From UHGV virus genome UHGV-1915822: 15,359 nucleotides of DNA; one strand, 5' to 3'. A program made the position numbers and the translations under genes. The notes under the pieces were generated by a model, which did not search any database, was not told where the DNA came from, and was given only the letters and a program-made list of their open reading frames with translations. This DNA comes from a virus. Positions 1-14,700 of this stretch are shown here, piece after piece. The stretch's first letter is position 1. Every line of letters begins with the position of its first letter.

Positions 1-47
1 ACACAGCTGTTACACTGTATGCGCTCCAAGAAAAGGAAGTGAGGAAA

Positions 48-215: not shown

Positions 216-250
216 ATAAGGGTGCCACCTTTCATATATTTTATGGTTAT

Positions 251-279
251 AGTATAGCAGGAAATATGCATAATGTCAA
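251..279 (-). promoter_or_regulatory. sigma-A-type promoter on the minus strand (TTGACA, 17-bp spacer, TG-extended TATACT)
   Basis: The reverse complement of plus 251-279 reads TTGACA-TTATGCATATTTCCTGC-TATACT. The spacer ends in TGC, giving a TGn extended -10. It is positioned about 35 nt upstream of the minus-strand ORF start at 215. Confidence 0.45.
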
Positions 280-312
280 TAGAAATACAGAAAGTTTTAT
301 AAAAATAAATAT

Positions 313-361
313 AAAATATTTTGAAAAAAGTATTGACAAAAGTTTTGAAAAAAGTTATAAT
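313..361 (+). promoter_or_regulatory. consensus sigma-A-type early promoter (TTGACA-N17-TATAAT) with AT-rich upstream palindrome
   Basis: -35 TTGACA at 333-338, exact 17-bp spacer, -10 TATAAT at 356-361. A 10-bp palindrome AAAATATTTT sits at 313-322 in the UP-element position. The first well-supported plus-strand gene starts at 389. Confidence 0.55.
319..355. repeat. two exact 13-bp direct repeats TTTTGAAAAAAGT bracketing the -35 hexamer (candidate operator)
   Basis: Exact copies at 319-331 and 343-355, 24 bp apart, on either side of TTGACA (333-338). Read directly from the sequence. Confidence 0.7.
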
Positions 362-388
362 ATAATCAAAGAAAAGGAGGGAATAAAT

Positions 389-938: not shown

Positions 939-1193
939 ATGAAGTATGTAAAAAAGAAGATTAAGGTATATTATTATACGGCTCACAGGATGATTTTAGA
1001 AAATGGCAGCCCTAAGTCAATAGGTGAATATACGATTTCATATTCAAGTAAAAATGCGCAGGATCGTGTAATTCAAGACTTATTTAATAAAAAGTATGGG
1101 CAAGGGGTATATTTAGTAACGAGTATTACTGAGCAGGAAAAAATTTATGGTATGCCTTTAGATGAATTTATTACAAAAGCGGAGGAATTGTAG
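939..1193 (+). CDS. phi29 p6-like double-stranded DNA-binding (histone-like) protein
   Basis: 84 aa, ribosome-binding site GGAGGG (926-931) 7 nt upstream. The C-terminal segment NKKYGQGVYLVTSITEQEKIYGMPLDEFITKA resembles the phi29 p6 segment KRKYKGEGRVTVVSVEPNTEVYELPVEKFLEVA as I recall it. It sits immediately upstream of the SSB-like gene, as in phi29 (gene 6 then gene 5). Confidence 0.55.
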   Translation: MKYVKKKIKVYYYTAHRMILENGSPKSIGEYTISYSSKNAQDRVIQDLFNKKYGQGVYLVTSITEQEKIYGMPLDEFITKAEEL

Positions 1194-1640: not shown

Positions 1641-1949
1641 ATGAGAGATTTATACATGGATTTAAAAAGAAGTCCTCATAAAATTCAGAGTAAAAACGGT
1701 ATTTTGTTTTATTTTTCTTCACAAAAGAGATGTACAAAATTTTGTGATGTGATATCAGCTTTTTGCGAGGATGAAGCGCATAAAATGAGTAATCGATATA
1801 AAATTTATATTGATTTTACAATTTTATATGAAATTATGCTGTATATGCAAATTGAGAAATACGGATTTTATATAGAATATAAGGGGGATGCGTTTACATG
1901 CCCAACGCAGGTAAAGTTAGATGGAGAGAAGCTGACGAAGCTAAGTTAA
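1641..1949 (+). CDS. phi29 p4-like transcriptional regulator
   Basis: 102 aa. ILFYFSSQKRCTKF and MLYMQIEKYGFYIEYKGD resemble the phi29 p4 segments VTFFFSSELYLNKF and FYSEVEKRGFHAWLKGD as I recall them. It sits between the SSB and terminal protein genes, as gene 4 does in phi29. The 3-prime end overlaps the terminal protein gene by 52 nt in another frame. The nearest SD (GGAGG 1606-1610) is 30 nt upstream, separated from the ATG by the hairpin. Confidence 0.45.
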   Translation: MRDLYMDLKRSPHKIQSKNGILFYFSSQKRCTKFCDVISAFCEDEAHKMSNRYKIYIDFTILYEIMLYMQIEKYGFYIEYKGDAFTCPTQVKLDGEKLTKLS

Positions 1950-4299: not shown

Positions 4300-4328
4300 T
4301 TTACAATTTGTGTAAAAAAGTATATAAT
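4300..4328 (+). promoter_or_regulatory. sigma-A-type promoter upstream of the packaging ATPase gene (TTTACA-N17-TATAAT)
   Basis: TTTACA at 4300-4305 immediately after the polymerase stop, 17-bp spacer, TATAAT at 4323-4328. Confidence 0.5.
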
Positions 4329-4464
4329 AATATTGAGAAGGTAAGACGGAAAAACGGATCAAATGCTGTTATGGGTGCCACTGATGAAAGATTCAGCCAT
4401 AAAGCCGTGGGAGTGGTTTCTATTTGGTTTGTGCCGTTTTATCTTTTCTTTTTTAGGTGGTTTT

Positions 4465-5487
4465 ATGGGTAAATATTGGGACATCGGAAAAATTTTGAGT
4501 TATCAGCGTAATTTTAATTTTATCAATGGCGAACGATCAATAGGAAAAACCTACACGACGGAGAAGTTTTTTATTGAAAAAGCGATTAAAACAGGAAAAG
4601 AATTCGTGTATATTACTCGTACACAGGACGAAAAACGGAACGGAATATTTAAAGAAGCATTCAGCAAAGTAATATCGCGAGAATTTCCCGACAAAGAGAT
4701 TATTTTCACAAATGACGAATGTCTATTAAAAATTGCCGAATACAAAAGATGCTTAGGATATTGTATTGCATTAAGTGAAGCGTTAAAGATAAAGAAACGT
4801 TCTTTCCCGAATGTGTATTATTTAATGTTTGATGAATATATGCTGGAAAATAAAGGTTTAACCCGTTATGTAAATGGATGGAAGGAGCCGGAATTATTTT
4901 TATCTATTTATCATACCATTGACCGTGAAGAAGATCGCGTTATTTGTTTTTTATTGGGGAATAATACAACTTTTTATAACCCGTATCATATGCATCCTGC
5001 GTTTCAAATTCCCCATATAAAAAAGGGACAAATATGGTCAGGGGAGAACGTTCTTTTTCAATGGGCTGAAGGCACAGAAGAATTACGGGAAGAAAAAGCG
5101 AATTGTAAGTTCTTAAAAATGCTGAACGATACTACATATGGTAAATATGCGGTAAAAGGCGACTATATAGAAGATTCTGACGAATTTATTGAAAAAAGAA
5201 GCGCAGAAGCAAGAGTTAGCTTTAATATTGAATATATGGGAAATACCTATGGCATATGGAATGATATGAAGCATGGCCGAATTTACATTGATACAAAAAC
5301 AGACCCGGATTGTACCTTAAATTATGCTTTAACCTTAGAGGATCATAGTGAAAATACCATGTTGACATCAACGAAATCAATCTCTTGTTTAAATTGGCTT
5401 TCTCAAAATTTTAAACTGGGGAATGTTCGTTTTGTTTCTATGGAAGTAAAAAAGATGTGCGAGGGAGCCATCAATCTGATTTTATAG
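4465..5487 (+). CDS. DNA encapsidation (packaging) ATPase, phi29 gp16-like
   Basis: Walker A GERSIGKT and Walker B YYLMFDEY. ILSYQRNFNFINGERSIGKTY parallels phi29 gp16 MLSYDRILNFVIGARGIGKSY. I chose the ATG at 4465 (AGGTGG at 4455-4460) because it places Walker A at the same distance from the N-terminus as in phi29. The track's longest ORF starts at 4363 without a ribosome-binding site and adds a hydrophobic 34-aa extension, so the start is uncertain. Confidence 0.85.
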   Translation: MGKYWDIGKILSYQRNFNFINGERSIGKTYTTEKFFIEKAIKTGKEFVYITRTQDEKRNGIFKEAFSKVISREFPDKEIIFTNDECLLKIAEYKRCLGYCIALSEALKIKKRSFPNVYYLMFDEYMLENKGLTRYVNGWKEPELFLSIYHTIDREEDRVICFLLGNNTTFYNPYHMHPAFQIPHIKKGQIWSGENVLFQWAEGTEELREEKANCKFLKMLNDTTYGKYAVKGDYIEDSDEFIEKRSAEARVSFNIEYMGNTYGIWNDMKHGRIYIDTKTDPDCTLNYALTLEDHSENTMLTSTKSISCLNWLSQNFKLGNVRFVSMEVKKMCEGAINLIL

Positions 5488-8119: not shown

Positions 8120-8149
8120 GGGGAGCTTTTCGCTCCCCTTTTTTCTTTT
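8120..8149 (+). terminator. rho-independent terminator after the capsid gene
   Basis: Stem GGGGAGC (8120-8126) pairs with GCTCCCC (8132-8138), 5-nt loop, then TTTTTTCTTTT. Confidence 0.8.
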
Positions 8150-11731: not shown

Positions 11732-14700
11732 TGTACGATTGCAACAAAAAGCCTTGCACTCCACCTCCTGTGGATCCATGCGAGCATCACCATCCTTGTG
11801 GCCCGGATTTTCCGAATTTTTGCCCTCCTCCTGCTCCCCACCCTGCCCCTTATCAGCCTCCTTGCCCATCCGTTGCGGAGGGCTCTTCGCTATATGAGGC
11901 CGTCAACAATCTGACGAATCGCGTCAACACCTGTATGGCAACCTATAACGATGTAATGGCAAACTGCTATAAAACACTTCACAATCTGGAATGCGCGGCA
12001 CAGGAAAACGGGGCATATTATGATTGCCATGAGGTATGGACAGAAACCGGTTATCAGCCGGACGAAAGCGCAACCTATACCATTATTCATAAAGCCGTTG
12101 TCGACCGACGCGGTGAGCCGATCCGTATGCAATTACATCTTGCTTATGGAAATACGACTAATTCGCAGATTACCCAAAACTTATTTTCTGCATCCGAAGT
12201 AACGCTGGCAGACAAAATTGTCCCGGCTATTCCTCTTACCGGTACAGGCTGGTATGGTAATGCGATTATAAACGGTTGCCCGATTCCTTCAACCGAAGCC
12301 TCTACCTATTATACAGTTGGCTTTACGAAAAAAGGTGTAATGCGCTATTACCCGAATTCGGTATCGGTTGATCAAATGTTAAAGGATACCATTGAGAATG
12401 CCATGGGGTGCTCAGGCGTTCTCATTATCAACAGCCAGATTGCAAATGATGCATTCTTTGAGCATATCCCGAACGCTACCGAACAAAAAGCACGTATCGT
12501 TATGGGCCAAAACTACGATACCCGCGAGGTCATGATTCTCGTATGCGGACAGGAAAACAATGTTGATAAAAAAGGTCTCACTTCTAAAGCGTGCGCCGAA
12601 ATTCTTCTTCAGTATGGTTGTGACATCGCCGTGGAGCTTTCCGAAGGTGACAGCGCAGGAGCATGTGACAAAGGGCAACTGATGTTCGTCCCCGACAATA
12701 ACAATGTGCCGGAGACTTACGCATTCTGGTATATCTCCCGCAAATGCTTCTATTGCAATGATTACCAGCGTGAACTCGCAAAGCTCATGCAGAATTATGG
12801 AACTTGTCTTTGGCAAACATATTTGAATAAAAAGAAAATCGAACAGCTTCGGGAGGATTTGAATACCGAAATCACAAATCGCGAGGATGCCGATCAGGTA
12901 TTGCAAAACCAAATCCTCGAAGAAGTCGATAATCGCGTTAAAGCTGACGAAGTATTGCAAAACCAAATCCTTGCAGAGGTCGATAACCGCGTTAAAGCAG
13001 ACGAAGTATTACAAAACCAAATCCTCGCGGAAGTGGACAACAGAGTTAACGCAGATAATGTCCTGCAAAACCAGATCCTTACGGAAGTAGACGCGAGAAA
13101 AAATGCAGACGATGTTTTACAAAATCAAATCCTTGAGGAAGTAAAAAATAGAGAAAACGCAGATAACACCCTGCAAGAACAAATCCTTACCGAAACAAAC
13201 GCAAGAATCGATGCGGATGAATCCCTGCAAAATCAAATTATTACCGAAACAAACGCCCGTGTCGCGTATGATGAAAACTTACAAGCACAAATTACAAAAG
13301 AAGTAACCGATAGAACAAATGCGGATGCTACCCTGCATCAAGAAATATTAACCGAACAAGGCGAAAGAATCGCCGCAGATGAAGTTCTTCAAAGAAATAT
13401 CAACGAAGAAGCCGCTACTAGAGCAGAAGAAGATACAAAACTACAAGGTAATATTGATGCAGAAACAACCGCCAGACAAGAAGCAGATGCCACCCTGCAA
13501 TCGAATATCGACGCATTGGCACAAAGAGTAACCGTCCTTGAAACGGATGTCGATCAGCTTCAAACCCTCTATAATTCCTTGCAGGAACAAACCGCCGCAA
13601 TGGATACAGCCATTACTTCCATTCAGCAAACGATTGCTTCTATTGAAACTTCTCTGAATAATGTAAAAACCTCTATCGACAATATCACCAACGGTACAAC
13701 ACTCCTGCCGTATTTGCCGATCAAAGGCGGTACAATGCAAGGTTCCATCAACATGAATAATAAATCGATTACCAATGTTCCTTCTCCTTCAGCAGACGGC
13801 GACGCGGTAAACAAAAAATATGTTGATGACGCGATTGCAGGTGGTATTACTCCTCCAACAGGCGACTATCTCCCCTTATCCGGCGGTACCATGACGGGAA
13901 ACATCAACATGAATAACAACCGTGTAACCTCTGTAGGAGCGCCCAGCGCAGGTACAGATGCAGTAAATAAAGACTATGTTGATGATGAAATCGCAACCGC
14001 AGGAGATGGAAAATTCCTTCCGTTGGCAGGTGGCGCATTAACCGGCGCAGTTACTACTACCGAAACTGAATTTGAAAATAATGAGCTTGTTACAAAATCG
14101 TATGTAGATGGACAGGTTGCAACCGCTGGAAATGGAAAATTCCTTCCATTAGCAGGTGGAACCATGACCGGGGCAATCAACATGGGTAATCAGAAAGTAA
14201 CAGCGGTCGCTACGCCTACTACAGGCACCGATGCTACCAATAAAACCTATGTGGATAACGCCATTTCTACTGCCGGAAATGGAAAATTCCTGCCGTTAGC
14301 AGGCGGAACTATGACCGGAGCAATCAATATGGGTAATCAAAAAGTAACAGCAGTCGCCACCCCGACAGATGGCTCAGATGCCGCAAATAAACAATATGTT
14401 GATCAAGCTGTTGCCGGTTCGTCTTATACGCTGCCTGCCGCTACTACTACTACACTTGGAGGTGTAAAGGTTGGAGAAGGTTTGTCCGTTACCGCGGATG
14501 GCACGTTGTCGGCTACGGGTGGAAGCACAGATATTCCCATTGCAAGCGATACCGTTCTTGGTGGAATTAAAGTCGGGGAATCACTTTCTATTGAAGCTGA
14601 CGGTACTTTAAGCGTTGTTGCATCCGATAATCCTACTACTCCGCGAATGCCTGTTAATAAAGAGTATGTCGATAATCAGCTCGACAATTTTGTAGCAAAA

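Follow-up and report, generated by a model that had tools for sequence, protein, structure and literature searches.

Several described promoters resemble the locus examined here, the intergenic region at positions 216–388 of the virus genome UHGV-1915822 (15,359 nucleotides, called the window below when its whole length is meant), in which two promoters stand back to back beside an array of 12-bp repeats. In SP82 Alu156-type promoters of Bacillus phages and rRNA operons, repeated A-tracts upstream of the -35 box, phased at ~10–11 bp, strengthen sigma-A promoters. In promoters of the Escherichia coli rrnB P1 type, an upstream (UP) element with the consensus -59 NNAAAWWTWTTTTNNAAAANNN -38 places an A-tract, a T-tract and a further A-tract directly before a consensus -35 box, and strength is gained by recruitment of the C-terminal domain of the polymerase alpha subunit (alpha-CTD); the consensus core is AAAWWTWTTTTNNAAAA, canonically at -57 to -41 (PMC5664571).

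Phage phi29 provides two further comparisons. At A2c/A2b/A3, a tandem pair of early promoters and an opposite-strand late promoter, which lacks a -35 box, lie within ~110 bp of one another. The sequences directly before the A2b and A2c -35 boxes (T-tract...AAAATG / GAAAAGTG) are the location of site 3 for the late-gene activator p4, and at A2b this site adjoins the -35 box and shuts out RNA polymerase. The early promoter C2, near the genome end, is repressed by the histone-like protein p6, which binds the minor groove, covers 12 bp per monomer and 24 bp per dimer, recognizes bendability without sequence specificity, and nucleates at sites 46–125 bp from the genome ends (PMC10899789). Set against these systems, the present locus is read as a very strong UP-assisted early promoter back to back with an independent promoter for a single gene, the array possibly being a regulator site; as a whole this reading is evenly poised, and its parts are graded separately below.

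Two back-to-back promoters and a tandem array

The core of the rightward early promoter lies at 333–361 on the + strand and consists of TTGACA (333–338), a 17-bp spacer and TATAAT (356–361). It is the sole 12/12 promoter match in the window, where ~0.03 would be expected by chance from a base-composition estimate. On the opposite strand, a leftward sigma-A-type promoter runs from 279 to 251, with TTGACA at 279–274, a 17-bp spacer and TGcTATACT, in which TATACT (256–251) forms part of an extended -10 box (11/12 matches); 54 bp lie between the two -35 boxes. Both promoters were found where the first-pass annotation of the window had placed them, and both have the hexamers and spacing of sigma-70/sigma-A promoters. 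Both rank among the three best promoter matches of the 15.4 kb, and weaker matches were in no excess (42 in total vs 46.8 expected from shuffles). Downstream of each, a Shine-Dalgarno (SD) sequence is followed at a suitable distance by an ATG and open reading frame (ORF). From these features, function as promoters is considered highly probable, with transcript starts predicted near 244 (leftward) and at ~368 (rightward).

The rightward leader is only ~20 nt long and leads into the SD sequence AAGGAGG and the first early gene (373–589, +), an orphan of 66 aa that begins at ATG 389. A second TATAAT at 361–366 (+) overlaps the -10 box by one base and, by reading, lacks a -35 partner at 16–18 bp; alternative registers using this hexamer or the TTGAAA sequences at 321 and 345 were rejected by the same reading, no partner hexamer being found at 16–18 bp. 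The rightward promoter appears to be the main, perhaps only, promoter of an early operon that contains two small ORFs, a p6 homologue, and genes for a single-stranded DNA-binding protein (SSB), a p4 homologue, terminal protein and DNA polymerase.

Two sequence elements reported earlier for the rightward promoter could be confirmed: TTTTGAAAAAAGT is present as exact 13-bp copies at 319–331 and 343–355, and the 10-bp AAAATATTTT at 313–322 is a true palindrome. The copies do flank the -35 box, as had been described, but they are the outer units, each extended by the next T, of three tandem 12-bp units at 319–354 (+): TTTTGAAAAAAG at 319–330, TATTGACAAAAG at 331–342 and TTTTGAAAAAAG again at 343–354. 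The -35 box thus sits within a repeat, the middle unit. This unit differs from the outer ones by two substitutions, one of which makes the consensus TTGACA; unit 2 would then have supplied the -35 box by alteration of TTGAAA to TTGACA.

The array was detected by two repeat finders (TRF score 62), and self-similarity across 290–366 was highest at lags of 12 (0.65) and 24 (0.64). For chance expectations, 5000 dinucleotide-preserving shuffles of intergenic 216–388 (78% A+T) were used. An exact direct repeat of at least 13 bp within 40 bp arose in 7/5000 shuffles (P = 0.0014), and the lag-12 match at 22/26 positions was reached in 0/5000. Dispersed operator copies of the 12-mer were rejected, as the genome held 8 matches at ≤2 mismatches vs 6.9 expected. 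A cruciform or hairpin role of the region is also unlikely, given a single-strand DNA fold of -5 kcal/mol (z = -0.18). A shorter string, the octamer AAAAAAGT, occurs in the 15.4-kb window only at 324–331, 348–355 and 4314–4321, all within the two strongest + strand promoters; the copies at 348–355, in the early spacer, and at 4314–4321, in the spacer of a promoter at 4300, lie directly upstream of a -10 box.

Directly before the rightward -35 box, TAAAATATTTTGAAAAA (312–328, +) matches the UP-element core AAAWWTWTTTTNNAAAA at 14/15 positions and contains the palindrome AAAATATTTT. A score of 14 is attained at only 3 of ~30,700 window positions, and because of this match unit 1 and the palindrome are explained as a UP element. 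The match is 1 nt off the canonical register, and the consensus is that of E. coli, which may not be that of the host polymerase. On balance, 312–330 probably acts as a UP element, with unit 1 providing its T-tract and proximal A-tract and unit 3 occupying the spacer. As in the rrnB P1 type, an A-tract, a T-tract and an A-tract directly precede a consensus -35 box, and alpha-CTD recruitment and a gain in strength would be expected here likewise. Apart from register, the locus differs from that type in that its 12-bp T/A-tract period runs on through the -35 box and spacer, without alpha binding there. It also differs from SP82 Alu156-type promoters, whose A-tracts are phased at ~10–11 bp and lie upstream of the -35 box; the period here and in several relatives is ~12 bp, and one unit here lies in the spacer.

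In combination, consensus hexamers, the optimal 17-bp spacing and a near-consensus UP element would allow maximal-rate firing by the host RNA polymerase, assisted by its alpha-CTDs on the injected DNA. In other respects the region looks like an ordinary promoter with a UP element, of the kind already known as a UP-assisted phage early promoter. If this is correct, it would be the master start-up promoter of a widespread group of uncultured, protein-primed gut phages of ~15 kb.

The only gene behind the leftward promoter is a 55-codon ORF at 48–215 (-, read from 215 to 48), with the SD sequence AGGTGG 9 nt upstream and no family match. Its coding status is not proven, because the nine substitutions among relatives are spread 3/2/4 over codon positions 1/2/3. 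Transcription would end at an intrinsic terminator, of which positions 1–24 (-) hold part of the hairpin, GCGCATACAGTGTAACAGCTGTGTGCGC followed by a T run, and the remainder lies just left of the window. In a fold of the predicted transcript, with the left part read from the flanks of relatives L001 and L010, the stem is 14 bp, and the terminator lies ~115 nt from the left genome end. The leftward promoter would thus express this one ORF independently, as far as the terminator near the genome end. Between the two promoters, an imperfect inverted repeat at 288–323 (CAGAAAGTTTTATA / TATAAAATATTTTG; a repeat-finder pair, 79% complementary) is centred at ~306, which by reading is the midpoint of 279 and 333 and so midway between the -35 boxes; it can be read as the facing upstream A/T-rich regions of both promoters.

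Comparison with the phi29 control regions

The first-pass annotation had likened the region to phi29 A2c/A2b/A3 and pointed to two downstream ORFs as p4-like and p6-like, and both assignments held. The p4 homologue at 1641–1949 (+) belongs to the phi29 late-gene activator family (Pfam Phi-29_GP4, PF05464, E = 3.6e-11; BLASTP against phi29 p4, E = 6e-10). Its N-terminus starts at the residue aligned with phi29 Arg6, so that little of the N-terminal hook that contacts DNA would be left. Between the SSB and p4 genes, a conserved G+C-rich hairpin with a T run is found at 1613–1641, and the p4 ORF begins 10 nt past it, without a SD sequence. By attenuation, this hairpin may lower expression of the genes for p4, terminal protein and polymerase. 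Longer p4 gene calls in some contigs result from an indel in the hairpin loop that shifts the upstream reading frame.

The p6 homologue at 939–1193 (+) is remote. It is an 84-aa protein of the histone-like double-stranded DNA-binding type, encoded directly upstream of the SSB gene, in the place that gene 6 has in phi29. A metagenomic protein, from MT836189, served as an intermediate: its full-length alignment with phi29 p6 has E = 1e-10 and that with the window protein E = 2e-6. When a profile was started from phi29 p6 and the MT836189 protein alone and iterated over relatives, it matched 939–1193 over its full length at E = 1.4e-13. In an exhaustive phmmer search with the 84-aa protein no p6 was recovered, and Pfam and PDB sequence searches were negative. 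Its AlphaFold model was weak (pLDDT 67), and PDB and viral fold searches with it gave no significant match; several Salasmaviridae double-stranded DNA-binding proteins were among the top viral fold matches, none of them significant.

With both proteins encoded, two components of a phi29-type switch are present. The layout is different: the control region is not a junction of divergent early and late operons, and the leftward promoter, instead of lacking a -35 box, has a perfect TTGACA and an extended -10 box. No p4 box of the form CTTTTT-N15-AAAATG could be found in 240–370 at ≤2 mismatches, and window-wide matches numbered 5 vs 6.6 expected. The best p4 box in the window, CTTTTTTACTTCCATAGAAACAAAACG, with 1 mismatch, lies at 5428–5454 (-), at the junction of the packaging ATPase and holin genes, and has no obvious -10 box after it. 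The region is not a phi29-style early/late switch, because the leftward unit is one ORF with a terminator, the late genes are co-directional with the early ones, and a p4 box is absent. The A2c/A2b/A3 analogy had to be given up on these grounds, and the divergent p4/p6 switch of phi29 is inapplicable as such because all genes except one run in one direction.

Partial likenesses to phi29 are nevertheless evident. Opposite-strand promoters lie within ~110 bp here as at A2c/A2b/A3, p4 and p6 homologues are encoded in the operon driven by the promoter, and, as at A2b, a T-tract...A-tract-G stands against the -35 box (AAAATG-TTGACG there, AAAAAG-TA-TTGACA here). Unlike A2b with its p4 site 3, the present region has no inverted-repeat p4 box and one early promoter in place of a tandem pair. 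The opposing promoter is self-sufficient and serves a single small ORF, unlike the -35-less phi29 late promoter, and the late genes here are co-directional, downstream of the polymerase gene.

Phi29 C2 gives a second parallel. Here too, an early promoter lies near the genome end and could be coated by a minor-groove histone-like protein with 12/24-bp spacing, of which a homologue is encoded. The array period is exactly 12/24 bp, equal to the spacing of the phi29 p6 monomer and dimer; the periodicity known for p6 nucleation sites is thus present as a periodicity of sequence only, with exact copies 24 bp apart. Phasing at 12 bp might give the DNA a right-handed superhelical path. The phi29 nucleation sites, by contrast, show no repeated sequence and are found no further than ~125 bp from the ends; the array is ~450–480 bp in from the left end.

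Possible use of the array: relatives, conservation and rival readings

Early regions were scanned in ~150 relatives whose polymerases are 32–61% identical to that of the window. A T-tract-N-A-tract-G(TA) was found directly before TTGACA in dozens of them (e.g. ...TTTTTGAAAAAGTA TTGACA), the unit type being T4-5, N, A5-6, G, TA, then TTGACA. Clearly periodic upstream arrays of 2–5 units occur in 10 relatives, with a best lag of 12 in 6, 11 in 2 and 13 in 2. By this comparison the upstream unit is a family trait of the early promoters of related phages. In relatives L043, L046 and L047, whose polymerases are 58% identical to that of the window, the early region contains two promoters; similar leaders (GGGGAGCGGATAACCCC...AAACCGCAGA) come after both and might represent a conserved 5' RNA element.

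Every one of the ten relatives with a periodic array encodes p4, a point that bears on one alternative, in which the array would be bound as an operator by the p4 homologue, as at phi29 A2b. The rightward early promoter would then be repressed by p4, with a possible effect on the leftward promoter ~73 bp away as well. The window encodes such a homologue (1641–1949), and phi29 site 3 (AACTTTTTGCAAGACTTTTTTATAAAATG, then TTGACG) is alike in T-tract/A-tract make-up and in its place next to the -35 box, and differs little from the array of relative L114. The enrichment is weak, as p4 is also encoded in ~22/33 relatives without arrays, compared with 10/10, and the genomes are not phylogenetically independent. 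The 240–370 region lacks a CTTTTT-N15-AAAATG-type inverted repeat even when two mismatches are allowed, the best T-tract-N15-A-tract candidate (317–343) is by reading without the symmetric outer G/C bases, and the repeats are direct and 24 bp apart. Together with a protein that would be short of most of its DNA-contacting hook, from a gene that follows a terminator-like hairpin and lacks an SD sequence, these points make a p4 operator improbable.

A broader proposal is that small gut phi29-like phages share, in these 12-bp-period arrays, a conserved type of operator through which their single early promoter is shut off. An early-operon protein would polymerize along the array in 12/24-bp register, and this would be the p6 homologue in the present lineage and p4 or an unrecognized analogue elsewhere. 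The arrays would then represent the regulatory solution of phi29-like genomes that lost the divergent early/late layout. At E ≤ 10, no p6 homologue was found in any of the 9 array-bearing relatives examined (of 10 found, with arrays of 11–13 bp). The proposal is regarded as unlikely.

What sets the window apart from its relatives is the unit inside the spacer. Among 52 promoters, the longest string common to upstream region and spacer was that of the window, at 13 nt, ahead of strings of 10 nt and 9 nt. L043 and L046, with spacers that read TTGAAAAAAGT, share the 9-nt one, TTGAAAAAA. By this measure the long spacer copy is specific to this lineage, in which a single 24-bp step would have carried the array into the core promoter. 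In the nearest distinct lineages (polymerase identity 54–61%), unit 3 is not conserved.

Closer in, conservation was compared across nine close relatives. Both promoters' hexamers and the leftward TG are invariant, and the rightward core 333–361 is invariant except at 343. This first base of unit 3 is A, not T, in 3/9 close relatives covering the site, in which the copies are 12/13 identical. The leftward spacer varies at 257, 260, 267 and 269. Over the block 289–388 only 343 and 381 are variable (98–100% identical), next to 86–92% in the leftward promoter region and 87–97% in the flanking genes; relative L009, for example, has 99% identity in the block against 87.8% in the leftward promoter region and 89.6% in the first early gene. 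This pattern argues for constraint on the whole block, spacer included.

In addition to its part in the promoter, the array might be used by a phage-encoded DNA-binding regulator from the early operon. The phased narrow-minor-groove track from ~-50 to -14 would be the loading site for the p6 homologue and/or the p4 homologue. Once bound, the protein would occlude the -35 box and spacer, and early transcription would fall as it accumulates, as with p6 at phi29 C2. Such use is put forward tentatively and is held to be somewhat less probable than not, and several points weigh against it. A consensus promoter with a UP element accounts for units 1 and 2 without any regulator. Unit 3, whose first base is polymorphic (T/A), could be a neutral product of replication slippage or be relevant only through spacer conformation. 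Conservation does not discriminate, because very strong promoters can constrain their spacers without a bound factor, and the identity of 289–388 could come in part from recombination-module exchange. The array type does not depend on p6, given that none of the 9 array-bearing relatives examined (10 found) has a detectable p6, and p6 itself has no sequence specificity (PMC10899789). For p4, the absence of an inverted-repeat box from 240–370 counts likewise, and direct repeats are ill-suited to a symmetric p4 dimer. The UP match itself is a nucleotide out of a register defined in E. coli, perhaps not the host's.

The same evidence can be turned into an account by promoter architecture only, in which the UP element and the A/T-rich spacer tune strength and DNA shape, no regulator uses the repeats, and unit 3 came from a 12- or 24-bp segment by slippage or duplication. 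The UP-consensus match covers unit 1 and the palindrome, the middle unit is two substitutions from the outer ones with one of these giving TTGACA, and T/A-tract arrays upstream of the -35 box are widespread in relatives regardless of gene content. The lack of unit 3 in the nearest distinct lineages, the polymorphism at 343 and a number of full-unit copies elsewhere in the genome that is not above chance also fit. This account has more difficulty with the period, which is 12 bp, vs the 10–11 bp expected for in-phase alpha-CTD sites or planar curvature. The spacer and 289–311 are as invariant as the hexamers, whereas the adjacent leftward spacer varies freely, and the three window copies of AAAAAAGT all fall in the two strong + strand promoters, two of them just upstream of the -10 box. 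It is given real but minority credence.

A host protein in place of a phage regulator was also considered. The palindromic cores TTTTGAAAA of the outer units (319–327 and 343–351) might be sites for a CodY-type host regulator or another A/T-tract-binding nucleoid protein, which would couple phage start-up to host physiology. CodY has the consensus AATTTTCWGAAAATT. The cores occur in the window only at these two positions, and some relatives' arrays come near the consensus by eye (e.g. L106, AATTTTCAAAAAATT, 14/15 positions). In the window, the best alignment by reading reaches ~11/15 positions without the two central bases, and the count of TTTTGAAAA is not above chance (2 found vs 1.06 expected). 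A host site of this kind is very improbable.

Genome setting, a third promoter and a candidate packaging RNA

The window is nearly the whole genome, ~15.5 kb, of a phi29-like, protein-primed gut podophage; the same gene set is carried by contigs of 15.53–15.59 kb, and the genome proper extends beyond the window by 129 nt on the left and ~40 nt on the right. At the true termini, reached by relatives L010 (1–130) and L172 (14425–14555), an inverted terminal repeat of ~30 nt, AAAAAGTGCATnnCGTTCCCCATGCAAAAATG, could be read. Repeated GCAAAAA(A)G motifs stand next to it at both genome ends, and AAAAAAGT is also found 40–47 from each end in the same two relatives; these motifs are possible origin or p6 nucleation signals.

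By Pfam and PHROGs, the + strand encodes a phi29-type SSB, p4, terminal protein, B-family polymerase and gp16 packaging ATPase, as well as a holin, M23 peptidase, major head protein, tail knob, connector, collar and fibre. Genes for packaging, lysis, head and tail follow the polymerase gene and have the + orientation of the early genes. This co-linear layout is also seen in Clostridium phage CI55P1 and largely in Eggerthella phage LE1-1; MT836189 and CH17P1 retain a phi29-like divergent early/late junction. Among named phages, Hungatella phage CH17P1 comes closest (60% polymerase identity). Hundreds of ~15-kb relatives are present in gut metagenomes, and no contigs with 62–90% polymerase identity were found. 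A megablast of the whole window against phage records gave no match, word-indexed searches with the 66-aa, 84-aa and p4 proteins returned only relatives at ≥88% identity, and a search of viral contigs with the exact array pattern and the p4 protein returned no relatives.

A third strong promoter was found at 4300–4328 (+), with TTTACA, 17 bp and TATAAT; its spacer ends in AAAAAAGTA, sharing the octamer AAAAAAGT with units 1 and 3. Behind it, positions 4335–4450 could form a structured RNA of ~115 nt closed by a 15-bp 5'/3' helix (-39.8 kcal/mol, z = -2.8), which ends just before AGGTGG and ATG 4465 of the packaging ATPase gene. In CI55P1, CH17P1 and MT836189, similar structured stretches are found after the polymerase gene and before that for the ATPase, and a search of Rfam with 4335–4450 gave no match. 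The leftward transcript had been tried as a packaging RNA (pRNA) and was rejected, having no Rfam match and a fold (z -3.0) that comes mostly from the terminator; 4335–4450 is the better pRNA candidate. A 1-nt indel in relative L011 indicates that 4363–4464 is non-coding, and the ATPase probably starts at ATG 4465, not at 4363.

The early promoter, the UP-type array and the candidate pRNA promoter are targets for the mapping of temporal control in these phages, for the construction of strong portable promoters for use in gut Firmicutes, and for tests of p6/p4 transcriptional regulation in a co-linear genome.

Further features were noted along the genome. Positions 766–938 are a mosaic hot spot: close relatives L001, L009, L011, L177 and L178 have an extra gene of 104–121 aa at this site, of which the window keeps only a 173-nt A+T-rich intergenic remnant. 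In L012 (717–2676), the phage left end, with the leftward ORF, the promoters and the first two early genes, is joined to bacterial-looking QueH, CoaE and SLT sequences, which is either an assembly chimera or a clue to the host. A perfect bidirectional terminator-like hairpin (8120–8138, GGGGAGC...GCTCCCC), with T runs on both sides, separates the major head protein gene from the tail knob gene. The tail fibre gene (1195 aa) contains in-frame tandem repeats of 54/108 nt at 12898–13194 and of 147 nt at 14128–14403.

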